Assembly: GCA_963775955.1 (NCBI GenBank)
Contig: CAVZKT010000001.1
Coordinates: forward strand, 85,437-149,436
Length of the DNA stretch: 64,000 nt
Direction: 5' to 3'
Origin: Candidatus Moraniibacteriota bacterium
GTDB lineage: Bacteria > Patescibacteriota > Minisyncoccia > Moranbacterales > UBA2206
In this document: positions 2,164 through 61,041 of the stretch, one piece after another
Layout: each line of letters starts with the position of its first letter
Numbering within the stretch: position 1 is the first letter of the stretch
Translations under genes and position numbers: made by a program
Notes under the pieces: model-generated
Told to the model about the DNA's origin: nothing
Database searches by the model: none
What the model saw: only the letters and a program-made list of their open reading frames with translations

Positions 2164-3601
2164 ATGGCAATAAAACAGGCCAATTCTATGGATAAAATCG
2201 TCTCCCTTTGCAAAAGGCGAGGGTTTGTGTTTCCGGGAAGCGAGATTTACGGTGGGCTGGCCAATAGCTGGGATTTCGGGCCATATGGAACGGAATTAAA
2301 AAATAATATCAAGCAAGACTGGTGGAAAAATTTTGTGCAAAACCGCGAAGATATAGTTGGATTGGACGCGGCGATTATTATGAATCCAAAAGTGTGGGAA
2401 GCTAGCGGGCATGTTGTTAATTTTTATGATTATTTAATTGAATGTAAAAAGTGTCACAATAGAATAAGGCCAGATACTTTATTAAGCGATGAAGATAAAT
2501 TTAATTCTCGCATCCAAAATAAAAGAAATTAATGCTTTAATAGAAAAAGAAGAAACTAGCGCAACTGCTCAATTAGATAATGTTGAGAAAATTCACAAAG
2601 AAATTCAACAAATATACAAAAAGATAAAATGTCCTACTTGCTCTGAATCCAATTGGACGATGCCGGCAATGTTTAATTTAATGTTTCAGACCAGCATTGG
2701 CCCTAATCGAGAATTAGCTTCAGTCGCATATCTCCGTCCCGAAACGGCGCAGGGAATTTTCGTCAATTTTAAAAATATTTTGGATACCACACGGCAAAAA
2801 TTGCCGTTTGGAATCGCGCAAATAGGCAAAGCTTTTCGCAATGAAATTACGCCTGGAAATTTTATTTTTCGCACGCGCGAATTTGAGCAGATGGAAATCG
2901 AATATTTTTTTAATTCGGAAAAAACAAAATGGGAAGAAAAATTTGACCAGTGGTTGGAAGATTTTAAAATATGGATGAATAAAATCGGAATTGATTCTAA
3001 AAAATTATTTTTTCACAACATAGAAAAAGAAGAACTGGCGCATTATTCCCAAAAAACTATAGATGTAGAATTTGATTTTCCCTTTGGAAGAGAAGAATTG
3101 TTTGGACTGGCTTATCGTACGGATTTTGATTTAAAAAGCCATAAATTAAATTATAGGGATCCAGAAACGCAAAAAGAAATTATTCCCCACGTGATTGAGC
3201 CGAGTTTAGGAGTAGAGAGAATGGCGCTGGCGGTGATGCTTTCGGCTTACATTGAAGAAAAAATTGGAGATGAGATGCGGGTAGTGATGAAATTTAAGAA
3301 TGATCTGGCGCCGATCAAAGTTGCGATTTTTCCGCTTCTGCGCAATAAACCGGAGCTTGTAAAAATTGCCAAAAAGATATATGATGATCTGAAAACTCAA
3401 TTTACGTGTGAGTTTGACGACAACGGGAATATAGGCAAGCGTTATCGCCGGCAGGACGAAATCGGAACGCCCTATTGCGTCACAATTGATTTTGACACTC
3501 TGAAAGATAAGGCGGTAACAGTGCGAGATCGGGATACGATGAAACAGGAGAGGGTTAAGATTGATGATTTGGTAAAATATTTAACCAACAAACTTAAATA
3601 A
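2164..3601 (+). CDS. glyQS: Glycine--tRNA ligase (alpha2 type), frame change within 2489-2532
   Basis: ORFs 2164-2532 (frame 1) and 2489-3601 (frame 2) join into one GlyRS. Motifs: [42 protein letters not shown], plus an anticodon-binding C-terminus. Confidence 0.9.
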
Positions 3602-3604
3602 AAA

Positions 3605-4156
3605 ATGGTCAGTTTTTTTGAAAAAATTTTATCTGGTCAAGCGGGAAGCATTAGCTTTAATAAGAGTCCCGAAAAAATTGTTAAAGAAAAAGAAAATCTT
3701 GAAGGGATATTCAATAAGCTTTTAGCAAGCTTAAACAGTTCTGAAAATCAAGAAAATATTGACAATATTGTCGGTTCAAATTCTGCCAGCGAATTGGCTA
3801 AAAACATTCAAATGGCCAAAGATATTTTAGAAAAAACGGGACTGTTGGCCAGAAGCCACTCAAACGGCAAGGAAATTTTAAGAAATATAGAAGTTTCATT
3901 TAATGGTTTCTTGCGAAGGGATGCTGGAGCTAAAGAAAAAGGATTGGCAGGGTATGCGGATATTATAAAAGAAAACTATAATGAATTGAAAGATTTTGCC
4001 GATTTAATTATTGAATGTGGGGATTACAGAGAAAAAGAATTTGGAGATTATTCCGGATATTTAGCTGAGGACGAAGAAGAAGGTGCAAAGTTGCGGTCAA
4101 ACATGCGCGATTATATAGAAAAGTGCAAGCAAAAAATAAGAAGTCGGAGTAACTAA
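3605..4156 (+). CDS. Hypothetical protein (183 aa, helical, acidic C-terminus)
   Basis: Clean ORF tightly packed between glyQS and the next gene. No motif recognised. Confidence 0.5.
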   Translation: MVSFFEKILSGQAGSISFNKSPEKIVKEKENLEGIFNKLLASLNSSENQENIDNIVGSNSASELAKNIQMAKDILEKTGLLARSHSNGKEILRNIEVSFNGFLRRDAGAKEKGLAGYADIIKENYNELKDFADLIIECGDYREKEFGDYSGYLAEDEEEGAKLRSNMRDYIEKCKQKIRSRSN

Positions 4157-5248: not shown

Positions 5249-6523
5249 GTGAAATTCAAAAAAACTACGCTAAAAAATGGCTTGCGCATTCTGACTGTGC
5301 CGATGAAAGATACGCAAACAGCGACAGTGGTTGTTATGGTGGGCGTCGGTTCGCGCTATGAAACTGAAAAAGAAGCCGGAATTTCCCATTTTCTGGAGCA
5401 TATGTTTTTTAAGGGAACGGAAAAGCGGCCGACGACGCTGGATATTTCTTCGGAGCTGGATGCTATTGGCGGAGAATTCAACGCTTTTACGGCTAAAGAT
5501 AAGACCGGATATTATGCCAAAGTGGATTCAAAGCATACAAGCGTTGCATTGGACATTATCTCCGGACATATTTTTAAATTCAAAAATGGAAGCAAAGGAA
5601 ATTGAAAAAGAAAAGGGTACGATTATTCAGGAGATAAATATGTATGAAGATACGCCGAGAATGAAAATAGGGGACGTGTTTGAAAATTTAATTTTTACGG
5701 ACAGTTCTCTGGGAAGGGAAATAATTGGAAATAAAAAGACAGTAAAAAATTTTCAGAGAAAAGAGTTTGTTGGATTATAAAAATAAATTTTATGTGTCCA
5801 ATGATACGGTGGTTTGTGTTGCCGGAAATTTTAATGAAAAGAAAAATATAAAAAGCTTGAGGAATATTTTTCCAGAATGACAAAAAGGGAAAAAACCTGC
5901 ATTTAAAAAGGTCAAGGAAAATCAAAAACAAGCCGCAGGCTATAATGCGAAATTTAAAGAGAACAGATCAAACTCATTTAATACTGGGAAATCTGGCTTA
6001 TCATCATAATCACAAAGACCGTTTTATACTGGGACTTTTGGCCATTATTCTGGGCGGGAATATGAGCAGCCGGCTATTTTCGGAAATACGCGAGAAAAGA
6101 GGTTTGGCATACAGTGTCCATACCGGTGTTGAAGCTTATTCAGATTGCGGCTATATAGCTACGCAAGCCGGAGTAGAACATGGAAATCTTGAAAAAACAG
6201 TTGGAATTATTCTGAAGGAATATAAAAAAATATCAACAGAAAAAGTCAGTGAAAATGAATTAAAAAAAGCCAAAGATTATATTAAAGGGCAGAGTGTGAT
6301 GAATTTTGAATCGTCAGATGAAGTAGCTATGTTTTACATAGATCAGGAATTAATCAGGAAAAAGATAATGAATATGGAGGAGATATTCGCCAAGATTGAC
6401 AAAGTGACGGCAGATGACATACTAAAAGTAGCCAAGGATATTTTCAAAGAAAAAACGCTCAATCTAGCCGTTATTGGACCGCACCAGGACGGCAAAAAAT
6501 TGAAAAGAATACTTAAATTATAA
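5249..6523 (+). CDS. M16 (pitrilysin/insulinase) family zinc peptidase, at least 4 frame changes
   Basis: Contains the HFLEH inverted zincin motif in GISHFLEHMFFKGT. Fragments are 5186-5605, 5331-5780, unlisted frames at 5760-5940, and 5945-6523. The start (GTG 5249 or TTG 5186) is uncertain. Confidence 0.8.
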
Positions 6524-52007: not shown

Positions 52008-53214
52008 ATGGCAGAAATCAAACCACCCGTAGAAACATTCGCGCGCATTAAAGTCGTGGGCGTTGGCGGTTCTGGAGGAAGCGCGATCAGCCGGATGATT
52101 GAATCAAAACTGCGCGGCGTTGAATTCGTGGCGATCAATACTGACGCGCAGGCCCTGCATCACAATAAAGCCACGGAAAAAGTGCATATCGGAAAAAATC
52201 TGACCAAGGGACTGGGGGCCGGGATGAATCCGGATATCGGACGGCAGGCGGCCGAAGAGAACCGCGAAGAAATTCAGGAGGTGCTTAAAGGGCTCGGATA
52301 TGGTTTTTGTCACTTGCGGATTAGGCGGCGGAACCGGGACAGGCGCGGCGCCGATTGTGGCGGAAACTGCCAAAGAACTGGGAGCTCTCACGGTCGCGGT
52401 GGTAACTAAGCCGTTTGCTTTTGAAGGCGCGCAAAGAAGGGCGATTGCGGAAGAGGGACTGGAAAATTTGCGCGAACGAGTAGATACTCTCATTATTATT
52501 CCCAACGACAAGCTGCTGCAGATTATCGACAAGAAAACGACGCTTATAAATTCCTTTCAAGATTGTGGATGATGTCCTGCGCCAGGGCGTGCAGGGGATT
52601 TCGGATCTTATTACCAAGCCAGGAGTGGTGAATGTTGACTTTGCCGACGTGAAAGCGATTATGGCAAGACAGCGGGTCAGCTCTTATGGGGATTGGCGTG
52701 GGACCGGGGGAAAATCGCGCGGCGGACGCGGCCAAGGCGGCCATCAACAGCCCGCTTTTGGAACTTTCCATTGACGGCGCCAAAGGCGTGCTTTTCAATG
52801 TCAGCGGGATCCAATGATCTGACAATGCTGGAAATCAATGAAGCGGCCAATATTATCACTGAATCCATTGACCCGAACGCCAAAGTCATTTTCGGCGCGG
52901 TGGTGGAGGAAACTATCAGAAAAGGGGAGGTGCAGATTACAGTAGTCGCGACCGGATTTGACGCGGAAAGAGTGAAGGAATCTCCAATAGAAAAAATGTC
53001 GCGGCTTTCCATTGAGCGCGGTAAAAATCAGGAAAGCGAAGGAAAAGAAAAGTCAAAAATTACTTTTCCGGCGCAGGGCGAGCACAAAATGATTATCGAG
53101 GAAAAGGTCCAGCCGAAACCGCAAAGAACTTTCACGCAGGTGGAAAAATCTTTAGAGGATGAGGATGACGAACTGGAAATCCCGGCGTTCATCCGGAGGA
53201 AGATGGGGAAGTAG
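52008..53214 (+). CDS. ftsZ: Cell division protein FtsZ, 4 frame changes
   Basis: [42 protein letters not shown], and C-terminal [12 protein letters not shown]. Junctions near 52295, 52560, 52665 and 52812 each look like one extra base in a GG/GGG or AA run. Confidence 0.93.
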
Positions 53215-53404: not shown

Positions 53405-54070
53405 ATGGAACAATTAACATCAAAGCAAAATACGGTTTTGGAAACTATCCGGGAAATTATTGAGGCGGAAAAAGAAAATCCGACGACTTATCGCGTGCAT
53501 AAATTTTTGGAAGAAAGGGGGGTGGAAGTCGGCAGCCTCAAGGGAACAGTCCAAGTCATTGAAGCGCTGGAGAAAAAAGATCTGCTTAAGCGCGATAAAA
53601 GCAAAAAAATATATCTGGTGGAAAATGATAATTATGCCAACCTGGGAAATATTTTTTCCATTCCGATGTATGGCCTGGCTTCCTGTGGAGAAGCGCTGGC
53701 TTATGCCGAAGGCAATGTGGATGGATATCTCCAAATTTCCGAAAGCCTTTTCAGAAAGGCCGATCCGGCCAAACTTTTTGCCGTAAAAGCTTTGGGTGAT
53801 TCCATGGACAAAGAGGAAATCGGCGACGGTGATTATGTAGTTTTTGAAAAATGCGAACTGGACCAGGATTTTGAAAATAAAATAGTGGTGGCAGTCATCA
53901 ACGGCATGGCGACGATCAAGAGATATAAAAAACTCAAGCACGGCATCATCGGACTTTTTCCGCAATCGCGAAATCCCATCCACCAGCCGATTTATTTGGA
54001 TGAATCAGACTCCATTCTCATTGCCGGAATTTTCCGCAAAGTCCTGCCGGTGGCGTATGTGAGCTTGTAA
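53405..54070 (+). CDS. lexA: LexA-type repressor (wHTH plus S24 peptidase)
   Basis: N-terminal LTSKQNTVLETIRE wHTH, an ASCGEALAYAEG cleavage-site region, GDSM (Ser) and ATIKRY (Lys). Confidence 0.88.
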   Translation: MEQLTSKQNTVLETIREIIEAEKENPTTYRVHKFLEERGVEVGSLKGTVQVIEALEKKDLLKRDKSKKIYLVENDNYANLGNIFSIPMYGLASCGEALAYAEGNVDGYLQISESLFRKADPAKLFAVKALGDSMDKEEIGDGDYVVFEKCELDQDFENKIVVAVINGMATIKRYKKLKHGIIGLFPQSRNPIHQPIYLDESDSILIAGIFRKVLPVAYVSL

Positions 54071-54104
54071 AAGACGGGGTAAAAACCAATAAAAAGCTGA
54101 AATT

Positions 54105-54929
54105 ATGGAAACAACAAAAATAGTTTTATTTAGAAATCGAAAAATCAGGAAAACTTTGCATAATAATGAGTGGTGGTTTGTGGTTGAAGATGTTGTATTT
54201 GCGCTTACGGATTCAGTTAATCCCAAGGATTATATAAATAAGATGAGGACCAGAGATAAAGAATTAAACAAGGGGTATGGACAAATTGTCCATACCCTTG
54301 AGGTTCCAACTGGGGGAGGAAAACAAAAAATGAATTGTGCGGATACGGAAGGCATTTTTCGCATTATTCAATCAATCCCGTCATCCAAAGCCGAACCATT
54401 TAAGCGCTGGCTGGCGAAAGTTGGGTATGAACGAGTGCAAGAAATTAAAAACCCGGAACTGGCAACTAAAAGAACAAGGATACTTTATAAGCTCAAAGGA
54501 TATAGCGATGACTGGATTGAAAAACGGATGCGCGGAATCGCTGTCCGCGAAGAATTGACGGACGAATGGCAAAAGCGAGGCGCGCGCGAACAAAAAAATT
54601 ATGAAATTCTGACGGCGGAAATTTCCAGGGCGACTTTCGGAATGACCCCGGGCAAATACAAAAAATATAAAAACCTGAAGCGCGAAAATTTGCGGGATCA
54701 CATGGATGATTTGGAACTGATTTTCACTATGCTGGGAGAAAGGGCAACAACGGAAATTCATCGCGACGAAAATTCTTATGGTATGCCAAAATTAAAAACT
54801 GATGCCAGGGAAGGCGGCGATATTGCCGGCGGAGCAAGGAGAAAATTGGAAAAAAGGCTAGGGAGACCTGTTACGACCAGGAGCAATTATAAGAAAATAA
54901 AACCGGGGAAGATTATAGAACGGCGATAG
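54105..54929 (+). CDS. Bro-N domain protein with DinD-like C-terminal region (DNA-damage-inducible protein D-like / antirepressor-like)
   Basis: WWFVVEDVVFALTD...GGGKQKMNCADTEGIFRIIQSIPSSKAEPFKRWLAKV (Bro-N pattern). The C-terminus KNLKRENLRDHMDDLELIF resembles DinD as recalled from memory. Confidence 0.65.
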   Translation: METTKIVLFRNRKIRKTLHNNEWWFVVEDVVFALTDSVNPKDYINKMRTRDKELNKGYGQIVHTLEVPTGGGKQKMNCADTEGIFRIIQSIPSSKAEPFKRWLAKVGYERVQEIKNPELATKRTRILYKLKGYSDDWIEKRMRGIAVREELTDEWQKRGAREQKNYEILTAEISRATFGMTPGKYKKYKNLKRENLRDHMDDLELIFTMLGERATTEIHRDENSYGMPKLKTDAREGGDIAGGARRKLEKRLGRPVTTRSNYKKIKPGKIIERR

Positions 54930-55087
54930 TATTCTTTTTCGGAAAGTTATGCTGGAAGTGTACGTGAATTTGTAAAATTGCTTTAGTGCGTTAAAAAGAC
55001 TATAATTATAAAAGAAACAGTAAAATAAAAAAATAACACTTACAGTATGTCGCAAATCAATATTGTAAATAATAATTTTATTAAAAT

Positions 55088-55285
55088 ATGATTGATGCCA
55101 GAAAGCCAAATTATTCAGAAACAGTAGACCAAACTCAAGAATTAATTTTTCTAATTGAAAAGCTCGAGAAAAATGTTTTGTTTCAGCTTCCACAAGGCAT
55201 TGCTAATAATTTTATCGCAACAAAAAATATTTTTTTGAATTGGATCGAAGAAGTCGAGTTCACTTTGGAAAATTATAAAAAATAA
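55088..55285 (+). CDS. Hypothetical small protein (65 aa) in AT-rich islet
   Basis: ORF only. No RBS, no motif. Confidence 0.35.
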   Translation: MIDARKPNYSETVDQTQELIFLIEKLEKNVLFQLPQGIANNFIATKNIFLNWIEEVEFTLENYKK

Positions 55286-55298
55286 TAAAAAATCAAAT

Positions 55299-55805
55299 AT
55301 GATTAAGTATCAATTTTTTCCAAGATCAGTTGGAATAAATAAACAAGTCCAAAAAATTATTGATTGCTTTTTAGCTGTTAATGATAGAATTTGTTCGCCA
55401 GAGCACACTCTTTCAAGTAATGAGGTCCTGTCAATTTTAAGATTGCAGTTGCTTAAAGTGCCAATGAGAGTTGAACAAGGGAAAGCTAGGGGATCAAAAA
55501 TTCCTGTCCCTGTCTTATTTGGTCTTGATAATAAAATTGATCAGCATTTCGATGCTGATGCATTAAGTTCTGATGGAACAATTGTTTTAGAAGTAGAAGC
55601 AGGAAGAGCGGTTGATAATTATCAGTTTTTAAAAGATATATTTCAAGCCTCAATGATGTATGGAGTTGAATACTTAGTTTTAGCTGTAAGAAATAATTAT
55701 CGCGGGCATGATGATTTTAAGAAAATATATACTTTTTTAGAAACACTTTATATTAGCAATAGGCTCCATCTACCACTAAAAGGTGTTTTGTTGGTAGGGT
55801 ATTGA
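55299..55805 (+). CDS. Hypothetical protein with PD-(D/E)xK-like D...ExE signature (BamHI-like arrangement)
   Basis: FDADALSSDGTIVLEVEAGRAVDNYQFLKD. Compare the BamHI D94...E111-F-E113 layout recalled from memory. AT-rich and lacks an SD. Confidence 0.4.
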   Translation: MIKYQFFPRSVGINKQVQKIIDCFLAVNDRICSPEHTLSSNEVLSILRLQLLKVPMRVEQGKARGSKIPVPVLFGLDNKIDQHFDADALSSDGTIVLEVEAGRAVDNYQFLKDIFQASMMYGVEYLVLAVRNNYRGHDDFKKIYTFLETLYISNRLHLPLKGVLLVGY

Positions 55806-55927
55806 TTTTTTGGATATTTTAAAATTTATCTAAATAGTATCTCCAATTTTTTAAATGAAAACAATCAAACCAAAACCAAGCGACAAGGAATATATTTTTA
55901 AAATAGAGTTACTTTTGAAGAATAACT

Positions 55928-57244
55928 ATGAACCAAAAAACCGCGTTGGAAATTTTAAAGCTGGGGCATAATGTTTTTTTGACCGGGGCGGCGGGAAGCG
56001 GGAAAACCTATCTTTTAAACCAATATATCCAATATCTTAAAAGTAAAAATATCAAAACAGCGGTGACAGCTTCCACCGGCATTGCGGCCACGCATATGAG
56101 CGGCATCACGATTCATTCATGGTCGGGCATGGGCATTAAAGATAAAATTACGGAGATTGATTTGCGCAAGCTTTCCCGCAACCGGCGCGTGCAAAAGCGG
56201 ATGGAAAAAACCAAAGTCTTGATTATCGATGAGATCTCAATGCTCCATGCCCATCAGTTGGACAATGTAGACAAAATTTGCCGATATCTGAAAGAAGAAA
56301 CCTTCTTGCCCTTTGGCGGCTTGCAAGTTGTGTTGTGCGGTGATTTTTTTCAACTTCCGCCGGTACAAAAAAACAGAAGTGAAAAAGTAAAATTTGCCCA
56401 TACTTCTCAAGTCTGGCAAGAAATGAAACTCAAGGTGTGTTATCTGGATGAACAGCACCGGCAAGAGGATGATCGCATGCTGGAGCTGCTAAATGATATC
56501 CGAGGCGCTAGGGTGAGCGAAAGAACTTGGGAAATAATATTGTCGCGCGGAAACAAGGAAATTTCAGAAATTAGCCAACCGACAAAACTTTTTACGCACA
56601 ATGTTGATGTTGACGGGATTAATAATCGCGAGTTGGAAAAAATTAAAGAAAAATCACTGGGCTATGAAATGCAAGCCAGGGGCAATAAAAAATTGATTGA
56701 ATTTCTCAAGCAAAGCTGTTTGGCGCCGGAGAAGTTGGTTCTCAAAAAAGGCGCGCGGGTAATGTTTGTCAAAAATAATTTTGATGAAGGATATGTTAAT
56801 GGAACAGTTGGAGATATAATCGGTTTTAATCCGGAAAACAATTTTCCGGTGGTCAAGACCTTGCAGGGAAGAAAAATAATTGTTTCTCCGGCGACCTGGG
56901 AAGTGCTGGAAGATGATGTGGCGCTGGCTAGAATAAAGCAAATCCCGTTGCGCCTGGCTTGGGCGATTACGGTGCATAAAAGCCAAGGCATGAGTTTGGA
57001 CGCGGCTGAAATTGATTTAGGAAAATCATTTGAATATGGAATGGGTTATGTGGCGTTGTCGCGCGTCAGAAAACTTTCCGGTATAAAGCTTTTAGGAATT
57101 AATGAAATGGCTTTGGAAATAAGCGAAGAAATATATAAACTGGATAATGAGTTGCAAAAGTTATCAGAGGATGCCAAACAAGAACTGGAAAAAATAGATT
57201 GGTTTGAAAAAAGAGAAAAACAAAGAAAGTTTGCCTGTGGATAA
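55928..57244 (+). CDS. pif1: PIF1/RecD-family SF1 DNA helicase
   Basis: FLTGAAGSGKT (Walker A), LIIDEISM (Walker B), LCGDFFQLPPV, ITVHKSQGMSLD. Confidence 0.88.
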   Translation: MNQKTALEILKLGHNVFLTGAAGSGKTYLLNQYIQYLKSKNIKTAVTASTGIAATHMSGITIHSWSGMGIKDKITEIDLRKLSRNRRVQKRMEKTKVLIIDEISMLHAHQLDNVDKICRYLKEETFLPFGGLQVVLCGDFFQLPPVQKNRSEKVKFAHTSQVWQEMKLKVCYLDEQHRQEDDRMLELLNDIRGARVSERTWEIILSRGNKEISEISQPTKLFTHNVDVDGINNRELEKIKEKSLGYEMQARGNKKLIEFLKQSCLAPEKLVLKKGARVMFVKNNFDEGYVNGTVGDIIGFNPENNFPVVKTLQGRKIIVSPATWEVLEDDVALARIKQIPLRLAWAITVHKSQGMSLDAAEIDLGKSFEYGMGYVALSRVRKLSGIKLLGINEMALEISEEIYKLDNELQKLSEDAKQELEKIDWFEKREKQRKFACG

Positions 57245-60337: not shown

Positions 60338-61041
60338 ATGGTGTTGGGCGGTTACCAAAAACTTACCCTCATTGATTATCCCGGAAAAATTGCCACCACG
60401 GTTTTTACGGTTGGCTGCAGTTTTCGCTGTCCGTTTTGCCATAATCCGGAATTAGTTAAACATGGAACATGGAACATGGAACAAAGAACAACGATGGAAA
60501 AAGAGTTTTTTGAGTTTTTGAAAAAAAGCAAAGGCAAGCTGGAAGGCGTGTGCATTACTGGAGGCGAGCCGGCGATCCAGCCTGATTTGGAAGAATTTAT
60601 CAAAAAAATAAAAAAGCTGGGTTTTTTGGTAAAGCTGGATACTAATGGCAGCCGGCCGGATGTGCTCAAGAAACTTATGGATAAAAAACTTCTGGATTTT
60701 GTGGCAATGGACATAAAAAGCAGCTCGAAAAATTATATTAAAACGACAGGATTAAAAGTGGATATCAAAAGGATAAAATTAAGCGTTAATTTGATAATGA
60801 AACAGCAAACTGCCGTATGAATTTCAGAACTACGGTTGTGCCCGGCATCCACACGGAAAAAGATTTTGAGGAAATCGCCAAATGGATCAAAGGCGCCAAG
60901 ACTTATTATCTCCAGGAATACCGCGAAATTAAAATTCTGGATCCCAAGCTTAAGAAAAAAACCAAAGGCAAAACCATTGATCTGGAAAAAATTAAGAAAA
61001 AAATCGAGAAAAATTTCGGGAAGATGGGAATCAGGAGGTAA
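60338..61041 (+). CDS. nrdG: Anaerobic RNR activating enzyme (radical SAM), 2 frame changes near 60800-60825
   Basis: CSFRCPFCHN cluster, ITGGEP. YEFRTTVVPG is readable only after removing one A (AAA run) and one base in ATTTCAG. Confidence 0.88.
60461..60482. repeat. CATGGAA x3 array inside nrdG
   Basis: The 22-mer CATGGAACATGGAACATGGAAC is identical to 36663-36684. Translated as HGTWNMEQ. Confidence 0.9.

Follow-up and report, generated by a model that had tools for sequence, protein, structure and literature searches.

The Type IIP restriction endonucleases (REases) BamHI, BglII and OkrAI are built on a single small α/β domain, with active sites that comprise E77, D94 and E111-x-E113 in BamHI and D84 and E93-x-Q95 in BglII. 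Besides complete restriction-modification (R-M) systems, solitary REase genes and REase genes located beside broken methyltransferase (MTase) genes have been documented (Ershova et al., 2012; PMC3488263). The DNA analyzed here, a 64-kb stretch from a Candidatus Moraniibacteriota bacterium (the window, i.e., the whole stretch, whose numbering is used for all coordinates), contains an AT-rich islet at 54930-55927 with two intact open reading frames (ORFs), which encode a 65-amino acid (aa) protein, hereafter partner A, and a 168-aa protein, hereafter the nuclease. A reading made from the letters alone (the sequence-only reading) had likened the 168-aa protein to BamHI and had joined it with its small neighbor and an adjacent superfamily 1 (SF1) helicase into a two- or three-gene anti-phage module. 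As detailed below, the likeness to BamHI is borne out at the level of fold, whereas the helicase is a resident gene rather than a partner. The explanation favored here, at a rough probability of 0.45, is that the nuclease is a restriction-type endonuclease, predicted to resemble BamHI and to cut unmodified DNA as a dimer, with host DNA protected through cytosine methylation by a linked or unlinked MTase and with the acidic partner as a modulator.

The nuclease gave no match in Pfam, NCBIfam or PADLOC and only weak matches in PHROGs, and the PDB sequences, searched with the protein itself as well as with a family profile, yielded only chance matches. At 90% identity its homologues form 3,392 clusters, mostly with a length of exactly 168 aa, and an exhaustive search recovered 639 clusters at 50% identity. 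An alignment of 53 diverse members shows E100 without exception, and E59, D87, E98, K112 and D113 in at least 90% of the sequences; most of these residues fall within the peptide that had drawn attention to the protein, FDADALSSDGTIVLEVEAGRAVDNYQFLKD, which corresponds to residues 84-113. The AlphaFold2 model computed on the family alignment is of high confidence (predicted local distance difference test score, pLDDT, 95.5; predicted template modelling score, pTM, 0.91), and its three best Foldseek matches in the PDB are BglII (1es8; probability 0.99, template modelling score, TM, 0.51), OkrAI (3odh) and BamHI (1bhm), with TM of 0.51-0.56. These three enzymes are the sole PDB matches with TM above 0.5; further BamHI chains give TM of 0.47-0.56, and the remaining matches are far weaker. 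Because the best matches of the model are BglII, OkrAI and BamHI, the BamHI-like reading is supported at the fold level. In line with this, the protein shows the α/β core and the D...(D/E)-x-K/E arrangement of the PD-(D/E)xK superfamily, with D87, E98-x-E100 and K112 conserved, and its fold similarity to solved members places it in the BamHI/BglII structural group. It shares with the Type IIP enzymes the single small domain, a parallel set of residues (E59...D87...E98-x-E100) and the occurrence of some members in controller-restriction-modification (C-R-M) or modification-restriction (M-R) operons, but it has no detectable sequence relation to them and is shorter (168 aa, compared with 194-212 residues in the matched chains). 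Judged by its sequence and its model, the nuclease would thus represent a new, unnamed branch of the PD-(D/E)xK restriction-fold nucleases. Some family members occur as in-frame fusions: P0214 (288 aa) carries the N-terminal part of a cytosine-C5 (C5) MTase, including motifs I and IV, and in P0125 and P0153 the nuclease is fused to an unassigned N-terminal domain of 80-140 aa.

Purifying selection on the nuclease is strong. The ratio of nonsynonymous to synonymous substitution rates (dN/dS) is 0.02-0.09 in 19/19 pairs for which synonymous divergence (dS) could be estimated, solitary copies included, with synonymous sites often near saturation. Identity between phyla, bacterial and archaeal, amounts to 63-90%, a level that therefore indicates transfer combined with strong constraint. 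A tree of the nuclease agrees with taxonomy only in part, and the distribution is patchy across bacterial and archaeal phyla. On mobile replicons the gene is rare, being present on 1 of 72,556 plasmids, in none of 50,697 phage records and on 6 of 2.9 million viral contigs.

The genomic context was compared over 82 unique loci, obtained from 80 species-level genome loci, a few metagenome loci and the window (L numbers denote individual loci). Pieces of C5-type R-M systems, mainly of the GGCC type (HaeIII or NgoPII), occur no more than about 2 kb from the nuclease gene in 40 of these loci; a C5 MTase is found in 29, a GGCC REase of the HaeIII/NgoPII family in 21 and a full-length Vsr gene in 12. 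All MTase and REase pieces (50/50) share the strand of the nuclease. One example of an ordered arrangement is the C-R-M layout of L173 and L174, in which a controller-like gene with an HTH_3 domain overlaps the nuclease start and an N6_N4 MTase gene follows, and another is L016, in which an N6_N4 MTase gene overlaps the nuclease start. Intact C5 MTase genes stand beside the nuclease in L019, L175 and L178, and in L042 and L053 an M.NgoPII-type MTase gene (dN/dS 0.07) comes directly after it; these two loci share their junction, and the low dN/dS of their flanks is weaker evidence than that for L054, L055 and L066 (see below). In L176 the order is Vsr, nuclease, C5 MTase, R.HpaII and C5 MTase, with the Vsr stop overlapping the nuclease start, and in L009, L014, L015 and L028 the R.NgoPII stop overlaps the nuclease ATG (ATGA). 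Additionally, a type I HsdM adjoins the nuclease in L171, a C5 MTase is nearby in L169 and on a Bacillus plasmid, and in one locus the nuclease, alongside a C5 MTase, is paired with an HhH-GPD glycosylase. The association extends to divergent members (39-51% identity), such as those of L169, L171, L173-L176, L178 and the Bacillus plasmid; where the context of divergent members could be used, an MTase lies no further than 3.5 kb away in 8/9.

The flanking R-M genes are often truncated. Their homology starts 0-5 nt past the nuclease stop or ends just before the small upstream ORF, and the truncation points vary within MTase, REase or Vsr genes, with at least 15 different junction positions. DNA homology between the window and other loci is confined to the ORFs, with its left limit at 55086-55223 and its right limit at 55801-55813. 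Like the nuclease, the solitary REase genes described previously (PMC3488263) have no linked MTase, or a truncated or frameshifted one beside them, and some of them may have changed function; those genes, however, belong to annotated REase families, whereas the nuclease family is unannotated, far more widespread and equipped with dedicated small partners.

In three Bacteroidota species (L054, L055 and L066), the nuclease lies inside an M.HaeIII orthologue, in the order M.HaeIII residues 1-169, partner B (see below), nuclease, Flavo-1 RNA, M.HaeIII residues 219-320 and R.HaeIII. The five genes of this locus have equal dS (0.5-1.9) and are all under purifying selection (Table 1). Since both MTase halves are constrained at a dS equal to that of their neighbors, the split MTase appears to work in two pieces and, from comparative sequence analysis, would be a natural C5 MTase "gene in pieces". 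This inference is kept only for L054, L055 and L066, where the junction is shared and the dS of the flanks equals that of the module; for pairs with differing junctions, low dN/dS on truncated R-M fragments was rejected as proof of function, because most of the divergence may predate the truncation. Two-piece C5 MTases have precedents in M.AquI, M.EcoHK31I and complementing fragments of GGCC MTases (cited in PMC3404938). Like the MTase of the three loci, M.AquI is divided in the variable region, with motifs I-VIII and IX-X on separate polypeptides; unlike in M.AquI and M.EcoHK31I, the halves are parted by the nuclease cassette and the Flavo-1 RNA, an arrangement that belongs to the related loci and not to the window. 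The Flavo-1 RNA (RF01705; 62.7 bits, above the gathering score) maps to 6502-6593 of L054, immediately 3' of the nuclease, and was the only element recovered by an Rfam scan of this locus, which detected no intron; the same repeat follows the nuclease stop in L042, L046, L053, L055, L059, L066 and L070, all from Bacteroidota.

Partner A has 11 database homologues of 64-69 aa (58-83% identical) and lies directly upstream of the nuclease in 12/82 loci. It is acidic, whereas the nuclease is basic (isoelectric point, pI, 4.8 vs 8.5), and it is constrained more loosely than the nuclease (dN/dS 0.10-0.52). Its AlphaFold2 model (pLDDT 85) consists of two helices, residues 10-33 and 36-64; no match was found in Pfam, NCBIfam or PADLOC, and a fold search with the model returned only generic helical hairpins. 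A helix-turn-helix (HTH) controller protein of the Xre type was considered and rejected, given the two-helix hairpin and the lack of an HTH_3 match. In 23 loci partner A is replaced by partner B, an unrelated and more acidic protein of 77-79 aa (net charge -8 to -15; motif IDExIFYFVEE; e.g., L054 5765-6004, L047 and L074), for which no database annotation was found. Partner B occurs mostly with HaeIII-type systems and partner A with NgoPII-type systems; the partner A gene ends between 14 nt before and 3 nt past the nuclease ATG. By tblastn, one or the other partner is present in 35/82 loci. In other loci an R.NgoPII or N6_N4 MTase gene is what the start of the nuclease is coupled to, and many lack any such upstream gene. 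A frameshift and two stop codons have made partner A a pseudogene in L003 and L004, where the nuclease is intact (92% identical). The sequence-only view of partner A as a companion of the nuclease is right in that this is a genuine, conserved gene in a subset of loci, although the nuclease can dispense with it.

In the window, the cassette occupies a variable slot between a lexA-like gene and pif1 (Table 1). The LexA-like protein matches Peptidase_S24 (E = 2.6e-17) and LexA_DNA_bind, and it reaches 84.5 bits against TIGR00498, which is under the cut-off. The closest relative, L088 (identity to the window of 97% for LexA, 85% for Pif1, 92% for NrdR and 87% for NrdD), is collinear by blastn up to the lexA stop at 54071 and again from 55919, 9 nt before the pif1 start; because collinearity breaks over 54072-55918, the DinD-like gene also belongs to the variable segment. 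In L088 the slot (2488-3991) carries a C5 MTase (317 aa) and an HNH REase (182 aa), and in L089 (1719-4004) it carries an apparently frameshifted HNH nuclease, an N6_N4 MTase (336 aa) and a 174-aa ORF. Since both sister genomes carry complete small R-M systems there, the interval is a variable slot that takes R-M-type cargo, which agrees with the defense-like setting suggested at the outset. The L088 MTase was considered as a GGCC-type enzyme, an assignment that was rejected on account of its low identity to the M.HaeIII group (about 30%), and hence the enzyme provides no direct link to the GGCC-type systems.

The segment 54072-55918 is accordingly read as horizontally acquired cargo, whose AT-rich part (54935-55918) is a compact two-gene cassette. 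At its left edge, a relic of the lexA 3' end forms a direct repeat (D1; 74% identical) with 54030-54072 and reads FRKVMLEVYVNL-stop, compared with FRKVLPVAYVSL-stop in LexA, so that two copies of the lexA end bracket the DinD-like gene. In L089, two copies that are about 93% alike (1613-1655 and 5545-5587) bracket the R-M cargo plus the pif1 gene. These duplications resemble an att-like scar and suggest that cassettes are exchanged or stacked where lexA ends, but the listed ORFs of the slot in the window, L088 and L089 include no apparent recombinase gene. A repeat search around the module revealed no terminal repeats or target duplications, the lexA relic being the sole meaningful repeat; a transposon, an insertion sequence or a miniature inverted-repeat transposable element (MITE) was thus discarded, as the module has no bracketing repeats and homology between loci is limited to the ORFs.

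Table 1. Features of the lexA-pif1 slot in the window and of the split M.HaeIII loci
Feature	Coordinates	Strand	Remarks
LexA-like repressor gene	53405-54070	+	conserved left flank of the slot, outside the cassette
Variable cargo segment of the slot	54072-55918	.	missing from sister genome L088
DinD-like Bro-N protein, 274 aa	54105-54929	+	GC 0.41 (normal); separate cargo gene
Relic of the last 43 nt of lexA	54935-54977	+	left edge of the AT-rich islet
AT-rich leader before the 65-aa gene	54978-55087	+	GC about 0.25; promoter presumed
Partner A, 65 aa, acidic two-helix hairpin	55088-55285	+	proposed modulator/inhibitor of the nuclease
PD-(D/E)xK endonuclease, 168 aa, BamHI/BglII/OkrAI-like fold	55299-55805	+	putative catalytic E59, D87, E98, E100, K112
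Spacer from nuclease stop to pif1 start	55806-55927	+	not conserved at other loci
Pif1/RecD-type SF1B helicase	55928-57244	+	conserved right flank of the slot
Split M.HaeIII locus	L054 5228-8019		also L055, L066; about 50 MTase residues missing at insertion; R.HaeIII intact
MTase N-terminal half	L054/L055/L066		dN/dS 0.005-0.05
MTase C-terminal half	L054/L055/L066		dN/dS 0.09-0.21
Nuclease	L054/L055/L066		dN/dS 0.02-0.04
R.HaeIII	L054/L055/L066		dN/dS 0.05-0.06

The composition of the islet, which had been judged AT-rich by eye, was confirmed by count: its GC content is 0.286, whereas the whole window has 0.413, and no other kilobase is richer in AT (among 1-kb segments, minimum 0.294 at 54901 and 1st percentile 0.330). 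By contrast, the supposed lack of Shine-Dalgarno (SD) sites does not set the islet apart, because SD-like cores are scarce throughout the window (before 5/46 long ORFs) and the neighboring genes are also without them. A scan for σ70-like promoters gave one weak match (55063-55092), no more than in shuffled sequence, and an Rfam scan of the islet matched no structured RNA. The DinD-like protein encoded upstream matches Bro-N (E = 1e-12), the PADLOC candidate family PDC-S13 (E = 1.8e-107) and phrog_15286 (E = 1e-84), and is a candidate single-gene defense protein; a 67%-identical copy lies in L008, downstream of the nuclease module there. Elsewhere in the window, ftsZ (52008-53214) is spread over at least three frames and nrdG (60338-61041) over two; these frame breaks are probably assembly indel errors or pseudogenes, whereas the cassette ORFs are intact.

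The gene that directly follows the islet indeed encodes a helicase of SF1, of the Pif1-type SF1B group (PF05970, E = 1e-43), and a module composed of the nuclease, the small partner and this helicase could be imagined from the window, where the three genes are adjacent and on the same strand; moreover, helicase components of some PADLOC candidate systems match the Pif1 protein weakly and in part. However, the helicase adjoins the nuclease in 1/82 nuclease loci, the window alone, and nuclease and partner are found in 0/80 metagenome loci centered on relatives of the helicase. In addition, the drop in GC is limited to the islet and leaves the helicase gene unaffected, and L088 keeps lexA and pif1-nrdR-nrdD with an unrelated R-M system in between. 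Co-occurrence was the very test that the sequence-only reading had named for its module, and since its outcome was negative, the module is contradicted and retains next to no probability. For lack of conserved co-occurrence, nuclease-helicase defense systems such as Gabija, Hachiman or Nhi-like systems were likewise rejected. The Pif1 helicase is a core resident gene, not a partner of the nuclease.

What, then, does the nuclease do? According to the favored explanation, its product would be a metal-dependent PD-(D/E)xK DNA endonuclease built like BglII, BamHI and OkrAI, whose homodimer would cut unmodified duplex DNA at a short site. Cytosine methylation would spare host DNA, through a linked MTase in some genomes and an unlinked one in the genome studied here, and the acidic helical-hairpin protein made just upstream may bind and restrain the nuclease as an added protection. 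A restriction function is favored by the fold and active site, the C-R-M and M-R layouts, the R-M context of the family, the R-M systems in the slots of the sister genomes and the foreign composition of the islet, and the low dN/dS, also of solitary copies, speaks for an activity that has been kept; partner A is placed, by analogy, like a controller or immunity gene. An adjacent cognate MTase, as expected in a Type II R-M system, is present in L016, L019, L042, L053, L173, L175 and L176 and absent from the window.

Several observations weigh against this explanation. Neither the protein nor any of the 53 aligned members matches the BamHI (PF02923) or BglII (PF09195) families in Pfam, and hhalign against one BglII-family protein gave a probability of 0.5%, even though the EVE motif aligns. 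A dN/dS near 0.03 together with 63-90% identity between phyla appear unusually conserved for a restriction enzyme, as far as our expectation goes. A plausibly intact MTase is nearby in only about 14/82 close-family loci, and the nuclease often stands, as an extra gene, beside a second complete REase (R.HaeIII, R.NgoPII, R.HpaII or a BglII-like enzyme). The linked MTases are of several kinds (GGCC C5, another C5 family and N4/N6), which is awkward because so conserved an enzyme should have one specificity. Within the 64-kb window itself, tblastn with C5 and N4/N6 MTase queries found no MTase gene, and MTase signature motifs, searched for in all six frames, gave matches only in what read as DprA and topoisomerase I; the sequence-only remark that the islet comes with no MTase is thus true of the window, but it misleads for the family, which is strongly tied to cytosine-MTase R-M operons. 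Finally, an avoidance scan of the window (GGCC, NGGCCN, GGATCC and AGATCT) gave no informative signal: there are 212 GGCC sites, with an observed/expected ratio (O/E) of 0.75, and GGCC-containing hexamers are not avoided. Other 4-bp palindromes are more depleted than GGCC (TCGA, O/E 0.40; GTAC, 0.55; ACGT, 0.65), a hint that sites other than GGCC are under restriction pressure in this genome, and within nuclease genes GGCC is about 2-fold below the mononucleotide expectation, a value that is not decisive. In comparison with the Type IIP group, the nuclease hence differs in usually having no intact adjacent MTase, in its frequent second REase, in its dN/dS of about 0.03 and in its non-HTH upstream partner.

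The main rival, in itself unlikely, holds that the nuclease is a selfish passenger of R-M operons, i.e., a mobile nuclease gene akin to homing endonucleases that colonizes cytosine-MTase operons. Its own cuts or the conserved R-M genes may serve as recombination arms, and it may persist since deletions break an addictive R-M system, solitary copies such as that of the window being remnants after decay of the system or after transfer elsewhere. This would account for a unit shared between loci that consists essentially of the ORFs alone, for R-M fragments that resume within 5 nt of the nuclease stop at many positions and always in sense orientation, for its presence as an extra gene in otherwise complete systems (L176, and R.NgoPII followed by the nuclease in L009, L014, L015 and L028), for the in-frame fusion P0214 and for the patchy distribution over phyla. 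The M.HaeIII orthologue split into 1-169 and 219-320, both under purifying selection, resembles the "genes in pieces" produced by free-standing homing endonucleases in phages, one example being mobE in nrdA of Aeromonas phage Aeh1: in both cases a compact nuclease ORF with precise edges and a patchy distribution sits in a conserved gene whose halves appear to stay functional. Unlike mobE-type genes, however, the nuclease is chromosomal, has no fixed target, does not decay after fixation and is accompanied by the loss of about 50 MTase codons at its insertion. A homing endonuclease in the strict sense, with a defined target and an intron or intein, was therefore rejected, given the variable junctions and the lack of an intron RNA in the Rfam scans of the islet and of L054; stop codons rule out an intein. 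More generally, a passenger is hard to reconcile with the lack of a common insertion site (at least 15 junction positions), with the failure to find terminal repeats or target duplications and with the near absence from plasmids, phages and viral contigs. Homing genes usually decay after fixation, whereas the nuclease retains a dN/dS near 0.03 over saturated synonymous divergence, also in the apparently vertically inherited solitary copies of Poribacteria, and canonical C-R-M and M-R layouts exist. A bolder form of the same idea, a "parasite of parasites", is somewhat less probable still: a hyper-conserved BamHI-fold nuclease gene with interchangeable acidic partners would specifically colonize cytosine-MTase R-M operons (GGCC, CCGG and others) in bacteria and archaea, split the MTase into a working two-piece enzyme and persist by hiding in an addictive system or by cutting uninterrupted operons, the window holding a free copy parked in a defense-cassette exchange site.

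Three further explanations take the partner, the C5 MTases or the missing MTases as their starting point. A toxin-immunity or abortive-infection pair, in which the upstream acidic protein restrains a nuclease toxin until its loss, e.g., on phage infection, frees the nuclease to degrade DNA, is improbable. As in type II toxin-antitoxin and nuclease-immunity pairs, the gene of a basic nuclease is closely linked to a small upstream gene for an acidic protein, two unrelated acidic families alternate in this position, a common trait of immunity proteins, the partner evolves faster (dN/dS 0.1-0.5 vs 0.02-0.09) and the cassette lies in a defense-type slot. Nevertheless, a partner accompanies the nuclease in only 35/82 loci, many constrained nuclease genes have none, and partner A lacks both the DNA-binding fold typical of type II antitoxins and any PADLOC match. 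Since partner A is replaced, absent or, as in L003 and L004, decayed beside an intact nuclease, a strict toxin-antitoxin relation with obligate pairing is argued against. Equally improbable is a Vsr-like nickase that would repair T:G mismatches arising from 5-methylcytosine deamination and would for this reason travel with C5 MTases. Such a role fits a small and very strongly conserved protein whose gene reads in sense next to C5 MTases that differ in specificity (GGCC and CCGG systems), in one case with an HhH-GPD glycosylase, and would tolerate another REase in the operon; it would be redundant, however, because a genuine full-length Vsr gene shares the locus in 12/82 cases and overlaps the nuclease start in L176. 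In addition, N4/N6 and type I MTases also accompany the nuclease, its nearest structural relatives are dimeric double-strand cutters rather than Vsr, the acidic partner gene is left unexplained and about half of the loci, the window included, have no nearby MTase. An assignment to the Vsr endonucleases was rejected, as there is neither a Vsr profile match nor an exclusive association with C5 MTases. Least plausible among these is a modification-dependent, Type IV-like nuclease that attacks 5-methylcytosine DNA, the broken C5-MTase neighbors being a sign of incompatibility. The solitary state in most loci, window included, the defense slot and the frequent truncation of flanking C5-MTase genes are what such a nuclease would leave behind, but it could hardly have coexisted for long with constrained MTases (the split M.HaeIII and intact R.HaeIII of L054, L055 and L066; the M.NgoPII-type MTase of L042 and L053) or stand next to the intact C5 MTases of L175, L176 and L178, and the model shows a single 168-residue domain with no separate domain for reading modifications.

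Two lineage-specific settings of the nuclease gene deserve mention. In Poribacteria and related loci (L005/L018, L020, L022, L025, L026, L029, L036 and L037), a conserved 368-aa protein, which gives a weak ParB-HTH signal, is encoded ahead of the nuclease, and in L022, L025, L029 and L036 an N6_N4 MTase is additionally located 2-3 kb upstream; this arrangement may be a lineage-specific modification or defense operon. In the acidobacterial loci L033, L038, L057 and L067, a repetitive extragenic palindrome (REP)-like hairpin and the gene for a REP-associated tyrosine transposase (RAYT) lie 3' of the nuclease, and L078 has the hairpin, with the RAYT gene about 2.2 kb further.

The nuclease family is nameless in Pfam, NCBIfam, PHROGs and PADLOC, yet its members number in the thousands and come from most major bacterial phyla as well as from archaea. 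Its interchangeable non-HTH acidic partners, its nesting in other R-M operons, the MTase in pieces and a conservation at the level of housekeeping genes lie outside the textbook picture of restriction enzymes, and the copy in the window is a foreign orphan cassette in a defense-cassette slot. For this lineage, the lexA-pif1 interval is a hot spot of cassette exchange, and the neighboring Pif1 helicase should not be annotated as a defense gene. If the nuclease is a restriction enzyme, it would be an unusually conserved one that lives mostly apart from an MTase and is served by a new kind of small partner, implying an unrecognized means by which a restriction nuclease is controlled or tolerated. 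As a passenger of R-M operons, by contrast, it would define a new class of mobile elements that live off selfish defense systems, and it would offer a natural case of a C5 MTase gene that functions as two pieces.

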